Part shown: piece by piece, positions 2,679 to 33,743 of the stretch
Layout of the letters: each line of letters starts with the position of its first letter
Position numbering within the stretch: the stretch's first letter is position 1
Sequence record: LN881738.1
Strand: one strand, 5' to 3'
DNA: 41,318 nucleotides
Origin: Clostridium phage slur17
Notes under the pieces: model-generated
The model's input: only the letters and a program-made list of their open reading frames with translations
Told to the model about the DNA's origin: nothing
Database searches by the model: none
Position numbers and translations under genes: made by a program

Positions 2679-3007
2679 ATCATACTTAATGTGTTGCGCT
2701 TTTACATTAATATACCCACCTAGATTTTTTGATATATAATAAATTCTAAAAAGCTGGTCTTTGTAGTCGGGCGAAGTATCAGCTTTAATTAATCTATCTA
2801 CTTTTATTTCTTTAAATAAAAAAGAGTCTTCGTAGATAGTAAATTCTAACTCGAAAACTCCGCTTTCTTCCTCTCTAACATGGTCATTTATTACATTCGT
2901 AAGAACACCTAAACCTAAATGCCTAAAATCTGTTTCTTTTTCTTCATATAAAACTAATTTTCCTTTTTGAATAATTAATCCCTCCCTCCAAATTTTAATT
3001 TAAAACT

Positions 3008-3763
3008 TTATAAAATATTCCATCTAGGATTTATTTTTATGCTTTTTATATCCCCTTCCCAGCTAATCTGATTTTCTCCTTCTTCAAGTATGGGAAAGTC
3101 ACTAAAAAGCTTATTATTTTCATTTACAATAATGTTATTTTCTTTGTTTATTCTATATACATTCATCTGTTCGCTATCTATTATTAAGTCGCTTAAAATT
3201 CCATTTTCTGCCACCCCTCTTAGCACTATGCTTTGAGTATTTATTTTTATACTTATGTCCCCTGCTCCTTCTATATAGAGAACAGGTTTTGACTCTCTAT
3301 AGAAATTTGTTATAGTAGCACTCTTTAGATTTAATACATTTAAACTTATAATTTCTTCTTCTGCGTATCTAAAAGGGTAGCAGTCGAATGTTAAAAGACA
3401 TGATGCAAAGTTTTTAAAATTTCTAGTTATATCTAGTTTATTGTTACAGCTTGCTAGATAATAAAAGTCACTATTACTTAAAAAAAGTTTTTTATATGAT
3501 ATATCGCCCTGTAGCCATTTTTTTATTTCTGTTGCAACTTCTTCTATATTACTTTGTCTTGCATCTATATCGCATTCTATTGTAAGCGTAAAATTTTCAA
3601 AACCTTTTTTTAGTAGTAAATCTCCATCTTTGCCTGGCACACTCACTCTTTCAACTTCCATCTGTGGAGCTGATAAGTCGTTTATATTGTATATTTTTAA
3701 ACCAAATTCTCTGCTGTCTCGACCGTTATAAACGAAAAACATAGCTTTATGCCCTCCTCTCAT
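3008..3763 (-). CDS. Distal tail protein (Dit-like)
   Basis: 251-aa ORF directly downstream of the tape measure gene, the canonical Dit position in siphovirus tail modules; call by synteny only. Confidence 0.55.
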   Translation of the reverse strand: MRGGHKAMFFVYNGRDSREFGLKIYNINDLSAPQMEVERVSVPGKDGDLLLKKGFENFTLTIECDIDARQSNIEEVATEIKKWLQGDISYKKLFLSNSDFYYLASCNNKLDITRNFKNFASCLLTFDCYPFRYAEEEIISLNVLNLKSATITNFYRESKPVLYIEGAGDISIKINTQSIVLRGVAENGILSDLIIDSEQMNVYRINKENNIIVNENNKLFSDFPILEEGENQISWEGDIKSIKINPRWNIL

Positions 3764-3862
3764 TTATTATTTTTTAGACATAACTCCGTTTTTGTAGTTA
3801 TATTTTTTACTATAGTCTTTTCAAAAAAGATAAAAGGAAATATAAAAAAGAAAAGGAACATT

Positions 3863-6800
3863 TTATAAAGCTCCTTTTCTTTTTGCTAAGAACAATATTT
3901 CATCAAAAAGATTTTCTATATCTTGTTGTCTATTATTTACAAAGTTTTCTATATTAAGTTTAATACCTGCTTGATTTTCATTAGCTTCATCAGCCTTATT
4001 ATTACTCATTATAGCTGTTTCTTTTCCAGCTTTAAAATCTGTACTTGCAACTATATTAGCTTGTATTTTAGACGTTTCAAAATTAACTGTAGCTTTTAAT
4101 TTACCTGTAAGTTCAGATATATTTTTCTCTATTTTTTCTTTCAAGCCTGGCGTTTCTACATCTATTCCAACGCCGACCCCTTTTACAAGATTTCTACCAA
4201 TTAAATCTCGCATGATTATGGAAGGTGAATGCACTCCAAAGCCGTCTCTAAATCCATCTATAACATTACTAGCAAAATCAAGGACTTGGTCTTTTAACCA
4301 GCCACCCATGCCCGTTATACCTTCCCATAAGCCTCTTACAACATCTTTCCCGATACTCATAATTTTACTAGGCAAATCTTTCAAAGCATCCTTAACAGCA
4401 TTTGCCATATTTTTTCCAGCTTCTCCAGCTTGTTTGACTAAGTTAGTCCCCCAGCTTATGACATTTGAAATGATATTGTCTAGCCATTCTCTAAATTTTC
4501 CTGGAAGCTGGCTAACAGTATTGTATATATTGTTAAAAAAGTTTTTCGCTGTTTCTAAAGCTTTTTTAGATAAATTAACTTCCCACTCCATGACTTTTTG
4601 CATTATATTAGTTAATTTTTCCCATATTTTGCCCGGAAGTTCTGAAAAGAATTTCATTATATTTTCTAAGAATTTGCTTCCTGTTTCTAATGCTTTTTGA
4701 ATTAGATTAGAACCCCATTCCGAAACTTTTCCCATGATATCTGTAAACTTTTCCCATAATTTTCCCGGAAGCTCCGAAATTGGAATTAATACATTGTCAA
4801 CAAATTGATTAAAAATATCTGTTGCCAATTGCTTTAAATTTTCGCCCCAGCCACTTATTGTTTCTACTACTGTATTAAACCATTCCGAAATTCTTTCGGG
4901 TAGCTCTGTAAAAAACTGTGTTATATTTTCCCAAATTGCACCAAAAAACTCTGAAACAGAAACCTTGAAATTTTCGCCCCAAGTTTGAATATTTTGCAAT
5001 ATGATACTAAAAAATTCCGAAATTTTTTCCGGAAGGCTTACAAACCATTCGACAATGCTATTTATTATTTCTGGTAATGTTTCTGTTGCCCAGGCGTACA
5101 GATTAGCTCCTAAATCAACGAAAAAACCAGCAATAGACCCGATTACAAAACCAATATTATATGGAATTTGTTTAAACCATTCGACAATATTATTTATTAT
5201 AGCTGGCATTGTCTCATTAAAGAAACTTGATATTTTTTCTCCTATTTTCCCACATTCTTCTTTTATCTTGTCGCCAATACCCGCAAACCATTTTGGTACT
5301 GTGCTAGTAAAAAAGTCTAAACCACTTTTTAATCCGCTTCCAATTGCATCTCCAATTTTTGACCCAGTCTCTTTGAACCAATTGCTAAGACCGCCGAAAA
5401 TCTCTACAGCTTTATCTTTTATACTTGAAAAACCTTGCTGTGCCTTATCTCCAAACTCTGTAAAAAAGTCTCCAGCTCCTGCAAATCCTTCACTTATTTT
5501 ATTTCCAAGACCACCAAAAAATCCACCTATATTTTCAATTCCTTCTTTGAATTTATCTTTTACTTTAGAGAAGAAATCACCAATAGAATTTTTTGCACTA
5601 GCTAGCCACTCATTTATATTTTTGTCTGTATCTCTTAGCCATTTTTCTATTCCACCAAAAAAACCACCAATGCCATTGAACCCTTTTTTTATACTTTCAG
5701 ATAATTTACTAGCTGAATCCCCAACTTTAGGGACTGTTCCTGTTACGAGTTCATCACTGACAAGTTCTAAGCCTTCAACAGAAGTTTTAACATCATCTAT
5801 GCCATCAGCATATTCTTCTAGTTCTCCAGCGTCCAGTTTGGCAGAACCAGAATCCAAAGAGGAACTTTTAGCAGATGAGTCTACATCCCCTCCACTTGCG
5901 CTAGAAGTATTAGCTTTTTCTTTTAGTTTCTCATATTCTTCTAACTTTTTCTTCAATCTATCAAGCTCTTTTTCTTGTGCTGGTATAATCTCTTTTAAGT
6001 TAATAGCTTCCTTTACAGCTTCCTGGATAGATTGCTTTTTAGAGTTAACTCCATTTAACAAACTATCTGCTAAACTCTGCCCTGCATCCTGCCAATGCGG
6101 GTTATATTCACTTAAAAGTTTTATAATTTCTTCTGAATTTTTTTGTAAAAGTAGCCTTCTCGCTTCATTTTGAATATTTGTCTCTTCTAAAAGTTCACTA
6201 AAATATTTTTCAATTTCTTCTTTTTGACTAGCATTAGACTCTTTTATCAATTCAAGTTTTTTACTTTCTGCTTCTTTTTGATTGTCGTACTCTTCTTTGT
6301 ACTGCTCTTTTTTGTTACTAGCTTCTGTTTTTATATTTTCAATCTGTTCTTTTAATCTGTTTTTTTCTTGTTGCCTTTGTTCATCTAATAATTTCTTCTG
6401 TCTATCTGATTGTGCTTCTGATATTTCTTTTTGTATTTTTTCTCGTTCTTTTTGATTTTTAGCTGTTGCTAGTTTCCTGTCAAGGTCGCTTATTTTTTCA
6501 TTGTACGCTTTCTCTTCTTCTGCTTTTTGTTCTTCTTCAATTTGCTTGTCTATGGCGTCAATTTGTTCTTGTATAGCATTAGTTTTCTCATTTGTTTCTG
6601 TATCTAAATACTTTAATTTCTCATTGTATTCTTTTTCATAGACCTTTAATCTATCATTTGATGCCTTTTCCTCAACTTTTAGTCTTTCATCAAGCGCTTT
6701 TATTTGTATATCTTTTTGACTTTCATATTGATTTTTTAATGCTGTAGTTATAGCCTCGCAAATTTTTTCAAATTTACTCTTGTTGGTCTCAAGATTTTTT

Positions 6801-9271: not shown

Positions 9272-9913
9272 TTAATCTTGTTTTTTAACATCATTTAATA
9301 GTTGTTTATATAGCCTATTAAGCTTAGTTTTATTATCATTATTTAAATGCTCTTTATAATCTATTGCTAAACTAGAGAATTTATAAGCATTGTTCATGCG
9401 AGCCTTTTCAGTTTTTAGTTCTTTCAATTTACTAGACATTTCATTGTAGTATCTAGTCAAAAAGTCATTTATAGTATCAGTCTTTTTTGCTATTATGCTG
9501 TCTAGCATCTGGCTAGGAGATTGACCAGAAAAGTTTAAGTTATCCTCTATGGCAACTAAGGCATATGATTTATCTAACAACATATTATATCTATAAAAAA
9601 ATGTTTTAGGGTCTTTTGTAGTATTAACTATATTAGCACAATCGTTTATTATTTTTAATAGCTGTTGAGCCTGCCTACTACTCTCCGAGCCTCCTGCACT
9701 CTTACCATTTTTCTTTTTACCTCCACCTAGTTGAGTTGTTTCTTGATAATATAAGCCACTTCCAGGAACTCCCAAAGTCGTCGTAGCTTTCCCTTTAGAA
9801 TTAACTGAAACTCTAGCACCTTTAACGCCACCGCTAACACTAACACTATTTTTATTAATATTTAACTTCAATCCACCGCCTAGATTTATGCTTTTTCTAA
9901 ATTTAAATCCCAT
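9272..9913 (-). CDS. DUF4236-like protein, probable moron inserted in the tail module
   Basis: N-terminus MGFKFRKSINLGGGLKLNINKNSVSVSGGVKGARVSVNSKG matches the Gly-rich repeat pattern I recall for DUF4236; followed by Gly/Lys-rich linker and helical C-terminus; has its own downstream hairpin. Confidence 0.5.
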   Translation of the reverse strand: MGFKFRKSINLGGGLKLNINKNSVSVSGGVKGARVSVNSKGKATTTLGVPGSGLYYQETTQLGGGKKKNGKSAGGSESSRQAQQLLKIINDCANIVNTTKDPKTFFYRYNMLLDKSYALVAIEDNLNFSGQSPSQMLDSIIAKKTDTINDFLTRYYNEMSSKLKELKTEKARMNNAYKFSSLAIDYKEHLNNDNKTKLNRLYKQLLNDVKKQD

Positions 9914-9984
9914 AACAATCCCCCCAAATTAAAATATTTATATAATAATTATATATTAATTCGGAAGGTGTAGAGTATATTATT

Positions 9985-10593
9985 TTATAATAAATTACTA
10001 ATATCTCCACCATTTAGCAAAGCTCTTTCAATTTCATTTATTTTCTCAACCTCATTTTTAGGAAGTGGTATAGCATGTATTTTTTTCATTTTCCTATAAA
10101 AATCTTTTTGCGCTTTTGGCATATCTCCACTTATATCCATTGCCCTGTAACCCATAATTTTAACTATCTCAGTATCTTCTTTCAAGGATTTAAATAGCGC
10201 TTTAAATTTCCACCAGTGTAATTTTTCTATGTCTTGCAAGTCAATCCCATATTGCCCTAGAAAAGCGGAATATATATACTCGTCGTCATGGTCATACGAA
10301 TATATTTGCCCCTTACTAGAACCACCCGCACCACTTTGACAACTATCATTAATATCATTTTCTTTTTTCCCGCACGAATAAAACCATATAATTTTATCTA
10401 TAGCCACCGTAGTATTTATAGGTATTACAGGGTAATATAAAGAAAGTGCATTTTTCCCTTTTTCCTCGTCACTTATAGAATCATCTTGTATCAACATTTC
10501 AAACAGAATTGATATTCTAAAATCTGTATTAATTTTATATTCTTCCCCATCAATTTCAACGTTTTCGGGAAGTACATCTATTAACATATTCAT
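9985..10593 (-). CDS. Tail assembly chaperone (Gp15-like)
   Basis: 202-aa acidic protein between major tail protein and tape measure; overlaps the upstream chaperone gene by 1 nt, as usual for the chaperone pair. Confidence 0.5.
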   Translation of the reverse strand: MNMLIDVLPENVEIDGEEYKINTDFRISILFEMLIQDDSISDEEKGKNALSLYYPVIPINTTVAIDKIIWFYSCGKKENDINDSCQSGAGGSSKGQIYSYDHDDEYIYSAFLGQYGIDLQDIEKLHWWKFKALFKSLKEDTEIVKIMGYRAMDISGDMPKAQKDFYRKMKKIHAIPLPKNEVEKINEIERALLNGGDISNLL

Positions 10594-31156: not shown

Positions 31157-31309
31157 ATGGATAATTTTTTACTTAATGTATTAGCTGGTGTTATAGCTAG
31201 TTTAATATTCTATATAATTAGCAAATTATTTAGACAAGTAAAAAACCACTCTGCGCAAAAGAGTGGTTGGGAATTTGATTTGAGAATCAAATTCAAAAAG
31301 TTTAAATAA
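31157..31309 (+). CDS. Small membrane peptide, type I toxin-like (50 aa)
   Basis: Hand-verified ORF MDNFLLNVLAGVIASLIFYIISKLFRQVKNHSAQKSGWEFDLRIKFKKFK with strong SD AGGGAGGTG 6 nt upstream; one hydrophobic helix then a Lys-rich tail; two hairpins in its 3' part. Absent from the ORF track (shorter than 60 aa). Confidence 0.5.
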   Translation: MDNFLLNVLAGVIASLIFYIISKLFRQVKNHSAQKSGWEFDLRIKFKKFK

Positions 31310-31361
31310 TTTTTTATTTTAGACTAAAACTCTACTCTTATGACTAGAATACAGTTCTCTT
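31238..31361 (-). ncRNA. Candidate antisense sRNA convergent with the toxin-like peptide gene
   Basis: Minus-strand promoter: -35 TTGTAT (plus 31392-31397), 18-nt spacer, extended -10 TGTGATATAAT (plus 31368-31378). Minus-strand terminator: stem 31244-31252 / 31260-31268 followed by T-run (plus A-run 31240-31245). Overlaps the 3' 70 nt of the peptide gene. Confidence 0.4.
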
Positions 31362-31454
31362 GCTTTTATTATATCACATTTTCTTTAAAAGATACAACTT
31401 TACATCATTTTCAGTATTCTATTTTTTTTATTTTTATCAAAGTTTATTTTAAGA

Positions 31455-31566
31455 ACGATAAAATTAAAAAACCACTCAAACGCCAATAAGAGTGGTTTAA
31501 GAAAATAAGTTATTTTTCAAAACATTGGAAATAGCTACTCTTGTGTAAAGTAAATCATTATTTCCT
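31455..31566 (-). ncRNA. Second, paralogous sRNA candidate with no intact partner ORF
   Basis: Near-identical promoter copy (-35 at plus 31599-31604, -10 at plus 31574-31579) and homologous terminator hairpin AACCACTC (31460-31467) / GAGTGGTT (31480-31487) with T-run on the minus strand; no peptide ORF on the plus strand opposite. Confidence 0.35.
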
Positions 31567-31761
31567 TGCTTTTATTATATCACATTTTTTAAAAAAAGAT
31601 ACAATTTTACATCATTTCTAATATACTAAAATCTTTACTTTTTACCAAAATTTGTTTAAAAAATAGGAGAAAACTATTGTTTTTGACGACCCGTCATGGT
31701 ATAATATATTTATAGAGAAGGAGGTGAGAAAGCAAAAAAATAAAAGAAAGGAGGAACGGGA

Positions 31762-31890
31762 ATGGGGAGATTAGAAAGAAGTAAAAAGAAAAGAGAAAAC
31801 AAATTTAACATAGTTAAAAAAGTTTTCTCCTTCATCCTATTATTACTTAACATAATCCTCGCAGTTCTAAGAATTTTGAAAGAACTGTAA
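31762..31890 (+). CDS. Small membrane peptide (42 aa)
   Basis: MGRLERSKKKRENKFNIVKKVFSFILLLLNIILAVLRILKEL; SD AAAGGAGGA 6 nt upstream; promoter-like TTGTTT-17-TATAAT at about 31676-31705; imperfect hairpin after the stop. Confidence 0.4.
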   Translation: MGRLERSKKKRENKFNIVKKVFSFILLLLNIILAVLRILKEL

Positions 31891-31964
31891 GGATAAGCCT
31901 AGAGGGAATAGCCCTTCTCTCTAGGTGACTTCTTTCTAATATTATAACACATTTCTAAAAAAAC

Positions 31965-32126
31965 ATGAGTGATAAATTTTATAAGATTTGCATTGTTTTA
32001 GTTTTGATAACTATAGTCTTAAATATAGTATCTATAGTATTAAACTCTAGTACAAGCAACATGCTCGGTTTAGTTTTTAGTGTTGTATTATTGCTTTTCT
32101 TTGTAATACAGCAAAAAAGGAGCTAA
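31965..32126 (+). CDS. Small two-helix membrane peptide (53 aa)
   Basis: MSDKFYKICIVLVLITIVLNIVSIVLNSSTSNMLGLVFSVVLLLFFVIQQKRS; no clear SD; its stop sits 3 nt before the AbrB-like gene start. Confidence 0.3.
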   Translation: MSDKFYKICIVLVLITIVLNIVSIVLNSSTSNMLGLVFSVVLLLFFVIQQKRS

Positions 32127-32129
32127 TGA

Positions 32130-32312
32130 ATGGAAAAAGAAAAAAGAGATTTAAAGTTTAACTTTCACAAAGGTGGGAGTGGGTCGTTTACTCCTAGAAT
32201 GAGTGTTCCTAAAAAATGGGCTGATGAAATGGGCATAACAAGAGAAAACCCTAATGTTACGGCAACATTCGAGGGCGACAGGATAATAATTGAAAAGGCT
32301 AAGAATGAATGA
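32130..32312 (+). CDS. AbrB/MazE/SpoVT-type DNA-binding domain protein
   Basis: 60 aa; TPRMSVPKKWADEMGITRENPNVTATFEGDRIIIEKA fits the looped-hinge-helix swapped-hairpin fold pattern; good SD AAGGAG. Confidence 0.6.
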   Translation: MEKEKRDLKFNFHKGGSGSFTPRMSVPKKWADEMGITRENPNVTATFEGDRIIIEKAKNE

Positions 32313-32399
32313 CTTTTTCTATAAAAGAAGGTTGCTTTTTTTCTTAGCCTTCTTTTTTTTAAATTTTACTATAATATAAAAATATTACTGTAATATTAT

Positions 32400-32585
32400 A
32401 AAAATATTATTTTAGTATTGTATATACAATATTTTAGTATTTTTAATATAATATATTGGTATTGTAAAAGCAATATGTAAATATTGTATTTATATTATTT
32501 GAATATTGTAATTAACAATATTAATATATTGTTGCAATATTATAAAAACAATACTACAATATTATTATAATATTATAAATATAAT
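32400..32585. repeat. AATATTGT-type repeat array upstream of parA (centromere/operator-like)
   Basis: Many direct and inverted copies of AATATTGTA / TACAATATT, e.g. AGTATTGTATATACAATATT, GAATATTGTAATTAACAATATT. Confidence 0.55.
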
Positions 32586-32591
32586 AATGAG

Positions 32592-33410
32592 GTGGAGAAA
32601 ATGGCTAATACAAAGCTACTTACGTACTTTAACATAAAAGGAGGTATCTATAAGACAACAACGTCTATAATGACAGCGTATGAACTTGCGAAAGATAAAG
32701 ATAAAAAAATACTCTTATGGGACTTAGATGTGCAAGCAAATCTAACACAATATGTTTATGAAATAAATCATAATGATAATACTACATTAGATATTTTAAA
32801 AGGGATTAGTGCTAATGATGCAATAGTCAAGTCACCTAATGAAAATTACATTAATGTAGACTTAATTCCTTCTGACATACAAATGGCTAGATTTGAACAA
32901 GAGCTATCACCTTTACCAGCCAGAGAAAAATTTTTAGCTCGCTGGTACATGCAAAACTTTAATACTTTGAGTGAGTATGATTATATTATCTGTGATTTAT
33001 CTCCACGCTACGATTTGACAGCTAAAAATGTGCTTTTCTTAGCAGATAGTATAATTATTCCAATTCAAGATAAAAACATTTCTTCTTTAAGAGGAGCAGA
33101 ATTATTTAAACAACTCTGGGATGTTGATAGAACCTATTTTGATAAGGAGGATAATATAAAAAGTACTATTTTAGTTGGATTTGAGAAGAAGAAAACTCAA
33201 ATTAGCGATACTTTCGATTCTTATCTGGAAGGGTTTAACGATATGAGAGATATTATGTTAGATACATACATTAGAAAAAATGAGTTTATAGAGAAGGCAC
33301 TATTAAAAAAACTATCTCTAACAGATTATACAAAAATAACTAAAGAGCATTTCAGCAGACAGGAATTTACTAATATGTTAGAAGAATTGAAAAGAAAAGG
33401 AGTGTTATAG
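32592..33410 (+). CDS. parA: ParA/Soj-family partition ATPase
   Basis: 272 aa; deviant Walker A KGGIYKTTT, A' motif LLWDLDVQAN, Walker B YIICDLSP. Confidence 0.85.
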   Translation: MEKMANTKLLTYFNIKGGIYKTTTSIMTAYELAKDKDKKILLWDLDVQANLTQYVYEINHNDNTTLDILKGISANDAIVKSPNENYINVDLIPSDIQMARFEQELSPLPAREKFLARWYMQNFNTLSEYDYIICDLSPRYDLTAKNVLFLADSIIIPIQDKNISSLRGAELFKQLWDVDRTYFDKEDNIKSTILVGFEKKKTQISDTFDSYLEGFNDMRDIMLDTYIRKNEFIEKALLKKLSLTDYTKITKEHFSRQEFTNMLEELKRKGVL

Positions 33411-33743
33411 ATGCCAAGTTTCAACAGAGACCTTTTAGTTGATAAAGAAAAACCGATTTTGAAAAATGGAACAATCGTACAAAATGATTCTACAACTACA
33501 GACAATAAGACATTAAACATATATAATCTAGTTAATAAGAAAAGTAAAAAAGTGACTATGAGTGCAACGCTTGATGAGGAGCTTGTAAACAAATTAAAAT
33601 CTTTTTCTATTGATATGAACAGCGACGTTAGTAAATTATTAAGTGATATACTAACTCAAATTTTATCTGATGTCACTATAAAAGAAGAGAATTTAAATAT
33701 ATACAATGAGAGAAATAGAAGAAATAAGACTAAGAAAAAGTAA
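33411..33743 (+). CDS. Putative centromere-binding partition protein (ribbon-helix-helix-like)
   Basis: 110 aa; start codon directly follows the parA stop; VTMSATLDEELVNKLKSFSIDMNSDVSKLLSDIL is consistent with a beta-strand plus two helices; basic C-terminal tail. Confidence 0.45.
   Translation: MPSFNRDLLVDKEKPILKNGTIVQNDSTTTDNKTLNIYNLVNKKSKKVTMSATLDEELVNKLKSFSIDMNSDVSKLLSDILTQILSDVTIKEENLNIYNERNRRNKTKKK

Follow-up and report, generated by a model that had tools for sequence, protein, structure and literature searches.

An uncharacterised three-gene cassette of C. difficile phages and clostridial plasmids with two small peptides and a putative AbrB-fold repressor

The DNA considered here is sequence record LN881738.1 of Clostridium phage slur17, a stretch of 41,318 nucleotides that is referred to at its full length as the window. 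At positions 31,762 to 32,312 it carries three short open reading frames (ORFs) in a row, coding for a peptide of 42 amino acids (aa), a second peptide of 53 aa and an AbrB/MazE-like protein of 60 aa, designated pep1, pep2 and abrB in the following. The locus raises the question of whether two small peptides and a protein of an antitoxin-like fold constitute a toxin-antitoxin (TA) system and, if so, which component would control which. In an initial annotation, pep2 and the AbrB-like protein had been regarded as a possible TA-like or superinfection-exclusion pair. Sequence comparisons now indicate that the three genes are one conserved cassette, uncharacterised so far, of C. difficile phages and clostridial plasmids. 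Within this cassette, the pep1 promoter is most likely repressed by the AbrB-like protein.

A cassette of three genes

The three genes are arranged in the window as follows:

31762..31890, plus strand: pep1, corresponding to gp32 of phiCD38-2 (phrog_5134); 42 aa
31965..32126, plus strand: pep2 (phrog_11497); 53 aa with two hydrophobic helices, without a Shine-Dalgarno sequence (SD) of its own, its 3' end holding the SD of abrB
32130..32312, plus strand: abrB, corresponding to gp31 (phrog_2329); AbrB/MazE-fold protein of 60 aa, consisting of the DNA-binding domain only

That all three ORFs are genuine genes is indicated by the comparison to the relative present in Hain-Saunders-2022a, which shows 65% nucleotide identity and in which all three frames are open and nearly the same in length. 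The differences at the first, second and third codon positions amount to 19/10/21 for pep1, 25/12/27 for pep2 and 23/16/30 for abrB. The second codon positions are the most conserved ones, so the ORFs did not arise merely by chance in AT-rich DNA. The stop codon TAA of pep2 (32124-32126) is located 3 nt upstream of the ATG of abrB. The ORFs and the 3-nt gap given in the initial annotation are thus exact in their coordinates, all three ORFs have a coding-type substitution pattern, and the promoter-like element and tandem SDs noted there in front of the 42-aa ORF can both be read in the sequence.

pep2 is a gene that was overlooked in most annotations. It is not annotated in phiCD38-2, the RefSeq plasmid and most other records, and was called in phiCD111 and Hain-Saunders-2022a. 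In the phiCD111 record (L013, 1509-1652), an ORF antisense to pep1 is annotated as 'putative membrane protein'. This ORF fits the codon-position pattern less well than pep1 and was probably called on the wrong strand, since both the SD and the codon-position pattern favour pep1.

For pep1, the best 19-residue hydropathy window reaches 2.72 (residues 21-39), and the N-terminal half has a net charge of +7. pep1 is therefore predicted to be a membrane peptide of the tail-anchored, cationic type, in which a basic N-terminal half precedes a hydrophobic helix at the C-terminus. No Pfam toxin domain was identified in pep1 or pep2, neither of them matched NF047374, and no significant match to PADLOC-DB was obtained for pep1, pep2 or the AbrB-like protein. 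In PHROGs, all three families are without an assigned function. The names given to cassette proteins in the databases are 'hypothetical', 'putative membrane protein', 'PemI' and 'AbrB/MazE/SpoVT family', and in the phiCDKH01 genome paper (PMC8270841) the cassette genes go by the labels PemI or regulator only. The papers on JD032 and PtrX contain nothing specific on the cassette genes, and no function of the cassette has been assigned in the databases or the literature searched. Homologue searches by word index, started from the single AbrB-like protein and from pep1, returned close C. difficile relatives only, with uninformative names. Three further readings of the locus were rejected: a bacteriocin/immunity system, for which a transporter is missing and the C-terminal half of pep1 is too hydrophobic for a secreted peptide, a holin, since the phages have their own holin, and a peptide pheromone system, since the 60-aa AbrB domain comes without a receptor module.

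The cassette has a conserved order, consisting of a peptide of about 40 aa, a transmembrane (TM) peptide of 25-58 aa and an AbrB-like protein of 57-63 aa; in C. difficile-type cassettes, pep2 abuts or overlaps abrB. The window itself is a phiCD38-2-like C. difficile phage-plasmid: over the 2.8 kb tested, its sequence matches the C. difficile phage CDSH1 and plasmid pCd23_2 with 100% identity and phiCD38-2, a siphophage persisting as an extrachromosomal plasmid, with 98%. Here, the cassette is located between a helicase gene and the parA partition locus. It was also identified in other C. difficile phage-plasmids, including Hain-Saunders-2022a, in the integrative phages phiCDKH01 and phiCD24-1, with two tandem cassettes each between integrase and endolysin, and at the end of phi027-like prophages beside the host Mn-catalase gene, with one or two cassettes. 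The reading of this Mn-catalase site as a chromosomal locus was rejected, since it is the end of the prophage. In three C. difficile chromosomes (L092-L094, about 9300-10190 of each locus), cassettes follow the endolysin gene, abiF (Abi_2) where present, and an LRR/CW_binding_2 gene. Two cassettes are present on the Terrisporobacter mayombei plasmid pTM2, one is located on the C. perfringens plasmid pCPC645_4 beside parMR and repA, and others were found in a Peptostreptococcaceae genome and in several viral contigs. Among 15 distinct phages with a detectable pep1, this gene never occurs without the AbrB gene. For the type-A pep1 (P0159) as well as for the AbrB partner, the index lists about 3,000-4,000 assembly blocks, with 4147 for the type-A AbrB. 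In the record examined of pCD630, which is said in the literature to share the region, neither parA nor the cassette was found. In strain 630, CD1663.2 (59 aa) and n00610 near CRISPR 9 were described as a 'divergent' small protein with an antisense RNA and were set aside as being without type I features (Maikova 2018, Soutourina 2019; PMC5961336, PMC6563280); compared by size only, CD1663.2/n00610 may belong to the cassette family.

The position of abrB in the window, directly upstream of iterons and parA, and the presence of a family member after parA-parB in P. sordellii pCS1 plasmids would be in agreement with a regulator of the partition system or a centromere-binding protein of the downstream parA operon and its iterons. 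However, the iterons do not contain the promoter palindrome described below, and integrative phages and prophages carry the cassette without par genes. Conversely, phiCDHM14 has kept parA, the iterons and type I toxins of the kind encoded by gp33 of the window, and has no cassette. The cassette is therefore optional and does not belong to the partition system, and the probability of a partition role of the AbrB-like protein is close to negligible.

Covariation of the promoter palindrome with the AbrB-like protein

Upstream of pep1, two features were identified:

31677..31705, plus strand: P1, the pep1 promoter, with the -35 element TTGTTT (31677-31682), a 17-nt spacer and the extended -10 element TGGTATAAT (31697-31705)
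31684..31696, no strand assigned: candidate operator, the GC-rich palindrome TGACGaccCGTCA in the P1 spacer, with the arms TGACG/CGTCA

P1 is of the sigma-A type, and in distant cassettes a near-consensus TTGACT-17-TATAAT is present at its position. The palindromes considered here contain GC, and their arms, which measure 4-9 bp, flank a centre of 1-3 nt. Per cassette, one such palindrome was found, which is located in the P1 spacer and nowhere else within 300 nt of the cassette. A spacer palindrome is present in 12 of the 13 distinct cassette types, as compared to 3.25% of the 21-nt segments of the window sequence. P1 is the only one among the promoter-like sites in the window (n=15) with a palindrome in the spacer, and TGACGaccCGTCA is the only such site in the 41 kb.

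The comparison of different cassettes revealed that the palindrome follows the type of the AbrB-like protein. In the viral contigs L049 and L058, the pep1 proteins are identical, with five synonymous differences between the genes, while the operators differ at 6 of 15 positions and the AbrB proteins at 18 residues, 15 of which are located in the N-terminal 35. Among the operator types, TCACGTcACGTGA is the type A site and TACGyccCGTA the type B site. In cassette B of phiCD24-1, an A-type pep1 occurs together with an AbrB and a palindrome that are both of the B type. The same relation extends to other genera. The pep1 peptides of pTM2 cassette b (L007b) and L079 are unrelated, but both loci encode similar AbrB proteins and carry the arms TATTGCA/TGCAATA. 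Likewise, the window and L096 from Peptostreptococcaceae share the arms TGACG/CGTCA and the loop GSGS[FY]TPR of the AbrB-like protein, with unrelated pep1 peptides. The C. difficile B type and cassette a of pTM2 share TTACG/CGTAA, and the N-terminal halves of their AbrB proteins are nearly identical. Within a type, the arms are fixed and the centre is variable, as expected for the site of a dimer. When cassettes are present in tandem in one genome, their operator and AbrB types always differ.

The palindrome thus covaries with the AbrB type and not with pep1, so that the pep1 promoter most likely has its cognate repressor in the AbrB-like protein. The simplest reading of the tandem arrangements is that the specificity pairs diversify to stay orthogonal, so that co-resident cassettes would not cross-regulate each other. 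The alternative raised initially, that the AbrB-like protein would serve distant genes only, does not agree with the distribution of its candidate site, since the sole TGACGnnnCGTCA site in the 41-kb window is located in the cassette's own promoter.

The assignment of the 60-aa protein to the AbrB/MazE/SpoVT swapped-hairpin proteins, already proposed in the initial annotation, is borne out at the fold level by structure prediction. An AlphaFold2 model of the monomer (pLDDT 87.9) has a beta-beta-alpha-beta-beta topology, with strands at residues 10-14, 20-24, 43-48 and 51-56 and a helix at residues 28-34. The top Foldseek matches of the model were MazE (2mrn), AbrB (1yfb/9a4b), VapB and SpoVT, with TM-scores of 0.58-0.63. 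In a comparison of a profile of seven relatives to PDB sequences, the top seven matches were MazE, AbrB and PemI-like chains, with marginal E-values of 0.011-0.1. The single sequence scored below the cutoff both for Pfam MazE_antitoxin (17.0 bits, cutoff 24.7) and for the NCBIfam AbrB domain (14.1 bits, cutoff 28.3); the family members P0010 and P0031 exceed the Pfam MazE_antitoxin threshold with 26.3 and 25.2 bits. The family of the protein comprises 960 representatives at E<=1e-3. For distant relatives of the AbrB-like protein, the contigs were shorter than 1.3 kb and offered little context. Natural relatives with two such domains in tandem, with a length of 114-131 aa, together with the two-fold symmetry of the covarying operator, give indirect support for an interdigitated, DNA-binding homodimer.

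The chain of the 60-aa protein ends right after the fourth strand, and with a range of 57-63 aa the family is without the C-terminal toxin-binding tail of MazE, PemI or VapB. Neutralisation of pep2 by protein-protein contact is therefore unlikely. This bears on the pairing of pep2 as a membrane toxin or exclusion protein with the AbrB-like protein as a type II antitoxin acting by direct binding, in which pep1 would be a separate gene. Such a pair would be consistent with the adjacency of the two genes, which abut or overlap and diverge together while pep1 is constant, with the common occurrence of the AbrB/MazE fold in type II antitoxins and with the name PemI given to the protein in several records. 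However, in addition to the missing tail, the matching operator is located in the pep1 promoter, with pep1 and pep2 between operator and abrB, and pep1 always accompanies the pair. Further, the L055 variant (viral contig, 1251-1490) has a broken pep2 frame and keeps pep1, the operator and the AbrB gene intact. On these grounds, a pep2-AbrB pair of this kind is considered quite unlikely. From the pair proposed initially, the TA-like appearance of the set is retained; the unit, though, is the trio together with a convergent promoter described below, and it is the AbrB-like protein that would be connected, through the operator, with the pep1 promoter.

In comparison to the type II antitoxins of the AbrB, MazE, PemI and VapB kinds, the cassette protein shares the swapped-hairpin-type fold, the small size and the presence on mobile elements, and its own locus likewise has a promoter with a palindromic candidate operator. 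It differs in the absence of a toxin-binding segment and of a MazF, PemK or PIN partner, and its gene is the last one in the cassette. The presumed membrane-peptide toxin would be controlled by its expression and not by protein binding. An AbrB-like fold and a locus with an antisense RNA, which is predicted here, are also found for SymE/SymR, in which SymE is an AbrB-fold type I toxin of E. coli, and some Fusobacterium phage relatives are annotated as 'toxin SymE'. In contrast to SymE/SymR, the predicted antisense RNA faces pep1 and not the AbrB gene, and the covariation with the promoter palindrome argues for DNA binding. The window protein gave no match to Pfam SymE_toxin.

A convergent promoter and the proposed mechanism

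The remaining non-coding features of the cassette are the following:

31717..31757, plus strand: 5' untranslated region with two SDs, GAAGGAGGTGA (31717-31727) and AAAGGAGGAAC (31747-31757)
31897..31926, no strand assigned: GC-rich hairpin directly after the pep1 stop, in the terminator scan a plus-strand terminator with the tail GACTTCTTTCT (31927-31937)
31941..31949, minus strand: convergent promoter TGTTATAAT, pointing back into pep1, in the third copy of the 32-nt repeat D3
31700..31934, minus strand: predicted antisense transcript against pep1, deduced from the promoter, with a putative 5' end near 31934
32325..32360, plus strand: terminator-like hairpin with a T-run that closes the cassette, read from the sequence and kept in the Hain-Saunders-2022a relative (L005)

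The second SD is part of an insertion present in some cassettes only. In the 11 independent cassettes compared, a near-consensus promoter and a strong SD precede pep1, and the non-coding layout is no less conserved than the genes. The hairpin is located within a few bases of the pep1 stop in 11 of 11 cassettes, and compensatory changes were identified in 3 of its 12 pairs among seven C. difficile-type sequences. All 11 cassettes also have a minus-strand -10 hexamer 10-25 nt beyond the hairpin, which is TATAAT in 10 cases and TATTAT in one, with a TGn extension in 10, and which in each case is directed towards pep1. The block 31927-31956 is nearly invariant even where the coding sequence diverged by a third or more.

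The first copy of repeat D3 is located behind gp33 (31157..31309), a gene about 600 bp upstream of the cassette, the 50-aa product of which matches NCBIfam NF047374 CD_typeI_toxin with 94.3 bits. Peltier et al. 2020 (PMC7699646) described gp33 of phiCD38-2 as a homologue of type I toxins; gp32 and gp31 are not mentioned in that paper. The statement in the initial annotation that three membrane peptides lie within about 1 kb is correct, the first of them being gp33 of this known type I toxin family. The homology of the convergent promoter to the gp33 antitoxin promoter suggests that an antisense RNA against pep1 is produced. In Rfam, no family was found at the cassette. The predicted fold of the pep1 mRNA has a z-score of -4.55 versus shuffled controls and contains a helix joining the first SD to the 3' pyrimidine tail after the terminator, with the second SD and the start codon partly paired to a stretch inside the ORF. 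For 9 of the 11 cassettes, the fold prediction gives a helix that closes the 5' end onto the 3' end, which is regarded as no more than suggestive.

With the type I modules of C. difficile (CD0956.2/RCd10 and CD0977.1/RCd11; NF047374), the cassette has in common that a strong SD precedes a gene for a small membrane peptide, that a convergent promoter with the same 32-nt motif follows directly 3', and that prophages and plasmids are the carriers, for which a stabilising role has been proposed (PMC7699646). pep1 is small, is predicted to be membrane-bound and is preceded by a promoter and SDs of its own, as is typical of a type I toxin. For CD0977.1, toxicity was assayed by inducible expression in C. 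difficile (PMC7699646). The differences are that pep1 has no sequence similarity to this family and a reversed polarity, since the family has a hydrophobic N-terminus and a lysine-rich C-terminal tail. Further, no antisense terminator was found in the cassette, and a dedicated repressor with its operator and a second membrane peptide are added, which are undescribed for the type I modules. If pep1 and the antisense RNA were an ordinary type I pair, with the AbrB-like protein and pep2 as unrelated neighbours, the convergent promoter, the hairpin and the mRNA fold would be explained, as would the proximity of gp33, which belongs to a known type I module and shares the promoter motif. However, the operator in the pep1 promoter tracks the AbrB type across recombinants and genera, and the four elements are co-inherited in several genera, which makes this explanation very improbable.

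From the anatomy, conservation, coding signatures, fold and operator-AbrB covariation observed, we infer DNA binding, repression, an antisense RNA, toxicity and a biological role of the cassette in the following way. The cassette would be self-contained, consisting of P1 with its operator, pep1, the hairpin, the convergent promoter, pep2 and abrB, and this model as a whole is regarded as slightly favoured. The 60-aa AbrB-fold protein, probably as a dimer, would bind to the palindrome in the P1 spacer and repress the pep1 promoter. Transcription of pep2 and abrB by read-through of a leaky or moderate pep1 terminator is assumed, since only one operator is present and no conserved promoter on the plus strand precedes pep2, and this would result in negative autoregulation. 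pep1 would be a cationic tail-anchored membrane toxin, the uncontrolled synthesis of which harms the cell; a strong promoter under the control of a dedicated repressor, together with a convergent promoter, suggests such a harmful product. The antisense RNA from the convergent promoter would cover the terminator and the 3' coding region of pep1 and act as a type I-style antitoxin, and the folding of the pep1 mRNA, with the 5' SD paired to the 3' tail, would aid the silencing. pep2, as a small membrane protein inherited and diversifying together with the AbrB-like protein, may be an immunity protein, an anti-repressor, an exclusion factor or a second toxin. For phages and plasmids, the cassette would be a means of stabilisation or of competition between elements.

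In two distant loci, related arrangements were identified. In L100 (Clostridia metagenome-assembled genome JAFRFO010000102, 620-1380), a promoter with the spacer palindrome AGTCGgtaCGACT is followed by a gene for a 96-aa mini-GNAT acetyltransferase and then by one for a 122-aa protein, the C-terminal half of which is the same AbrB-like domain, so that the architecture is the same with another cargo. In L107 (Firmicutes bacterium ZOR0006, 830-1400), the spacer palindrome AATGACtGTCATT, a hairpin, a TM peptide and an AbrB-like gene are present, with a non-hydrophobic first peptide of 27 aa, MSKLKTLSVKFEISLTGFKFEFKIKLK. The differing cargo behind spacer palindromes in these loci fits an 'operator-cargo-repressor' design with an exchangeable cargo.

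A harmful product would not be required if the cassette were a toxin-free heteroimmune switch, with pep1 and pep2 as benign membrane proteins of lysogenic conversion that, for example, block the DNA injection of other phages. The cassettes of integrative phages are located in the moron region, between the lysis genes and the integrase/attachment end, the repressor and operator specificities diversify like phage immunity regions, and PHROGs files pep2 as a 'moron'. However, the cassette is also present on small non-phage plasmids beside replication and partition genes, and the tight silencing on several levels, by an operator in a strong promoter and a convergent promoter, would be unusual for a benign product. 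The cargo, moreover, varies in sequence and is a mini-GNAT in one case. A benign switch of this type is therefore considered rather unlikely, and a toxic pep1 under the control of the AbrB-like protein is preferred.

In its logic, this arrangement is closest to kilA/korA of RK2, kil/kor of the Streptomyces plasmid pIJ101 and the kil genes of phages, in which a potentially host-lethal gene is silenced by a cognate repressor that is encoded by the element and acts at the promoter. The likeness is limited to the logic and implies no homology, since the proteins are unrelated. The cassette differs by its compact size of about 700 bp, the AbrB-fold repressor, the peptide cargo, the convergent promoter and the many orthogonal specificities. 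A second analogy is provided by sdpABC/sdpRI of B. subtilis, which combines a toxic peptide, a membrane immunity protein and an autorepressor. There, the toxin is exported and the repressor controls the immunity operon; SdpR is of the ArsR type, and SdpI is a large multi-pass protein. The sdp proteins are unrelated to the cassette proteins, and the resemblance lies in the combination of a membrane-active peptide, a membrane protein and a small repressor, which offers a possible model for a modulation of the repressor by pep2.

Several observations weigh against the model proposed here. The polarity of pep1, with a charged N-terminus and a hydrophobic C-terminus, is opposite to that of the validated C. 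difficile type I toxins, and a repressor by itself cannot give post-segregational killing. No terminator for the antisense RNA was found in the terminator scan, the minus-strand hairpin being without a T-run. No conserved plus-strand promoter for pep2-abrB was found across the cassettes, for which reason read-through had to be assumed, and the C. difficile pep2 has no SD. The helix between the 5' and 3' ends of the pep1 mRNA may simply be due to the high purine content of the 5' end and the high U content of the terminator tail. In the wider AbrB family, many members occur without the peptides. Finally, pep1 is non-hydrophobic in the distant L107 and a short ORF of 16 aa in L015.

The cassette is likely a new, testable variant of a TA module. 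It is a more tentative proposal, possible but clearly not the expected outcome, that it represents an unrecognised TA-like class, in which a dedicated and rapidly diversifying AbrB-fold repressor, acting at the toxin promoter, would serve as the 'antitoxin' of a membrane-peptide toxin, backed by an antisense RNA and a co-evolving membrane peptide. With their many orthogonal specificities, such cassettes would be private addiction or competition devices in co-resident phages, prophages (including phi027 of epidemic C. difficile) and plasmids. If the model is correct, a large share of the sequenced C. difficile strains would contain an unrecognised module for maintenance or competition, which would also be present in most of the C. 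difficile phages considered for therapy. The prophage-end cassettes examined are located in a phi027-like prophage, the type carried by strain R20291, for which no TA system was predicted (PMC11222575). The repressor/operator sets would further represent a natural library of tiny orthogonal switches, each consisting of a 60-aa protein and a 13-bp site, which would work in a low-GC Gram-positive organism without such tools.

Neighbouring loci in the window

The antitoxin predicted for gp33 would be transcribed from a TGATATAAT promoter on the minus strand, within 31359-31390, up to a terminator on the same strand at 31268..31244. This terminator is located inside gp33 and would give rise to an RNA of about 120 nt, similar in size and geometry to the published RCd antitoxins (PMC7699646). 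Between gp33 and P1, the segment 31462-31662 contains a second copy of the gp33 antitoxin promoter (31565-31596, 91% identical) and a terminator-like hairpin (31469-31498), whereas an intact ORF for a toxin is missing. In appearance, the segment resembles an orphan antitoxin or what is left of a module that was duplicated.

Downstream of the cassette, the region 32362-32608 between the AbrB gene and parA (32601..33410) consists of an AT-rich repeat array with a spacing of 11 and 22 nt, which is probably the partition site. Directly after parA, a gene coding for a protein of 110 aa (33411..33743) was identified.

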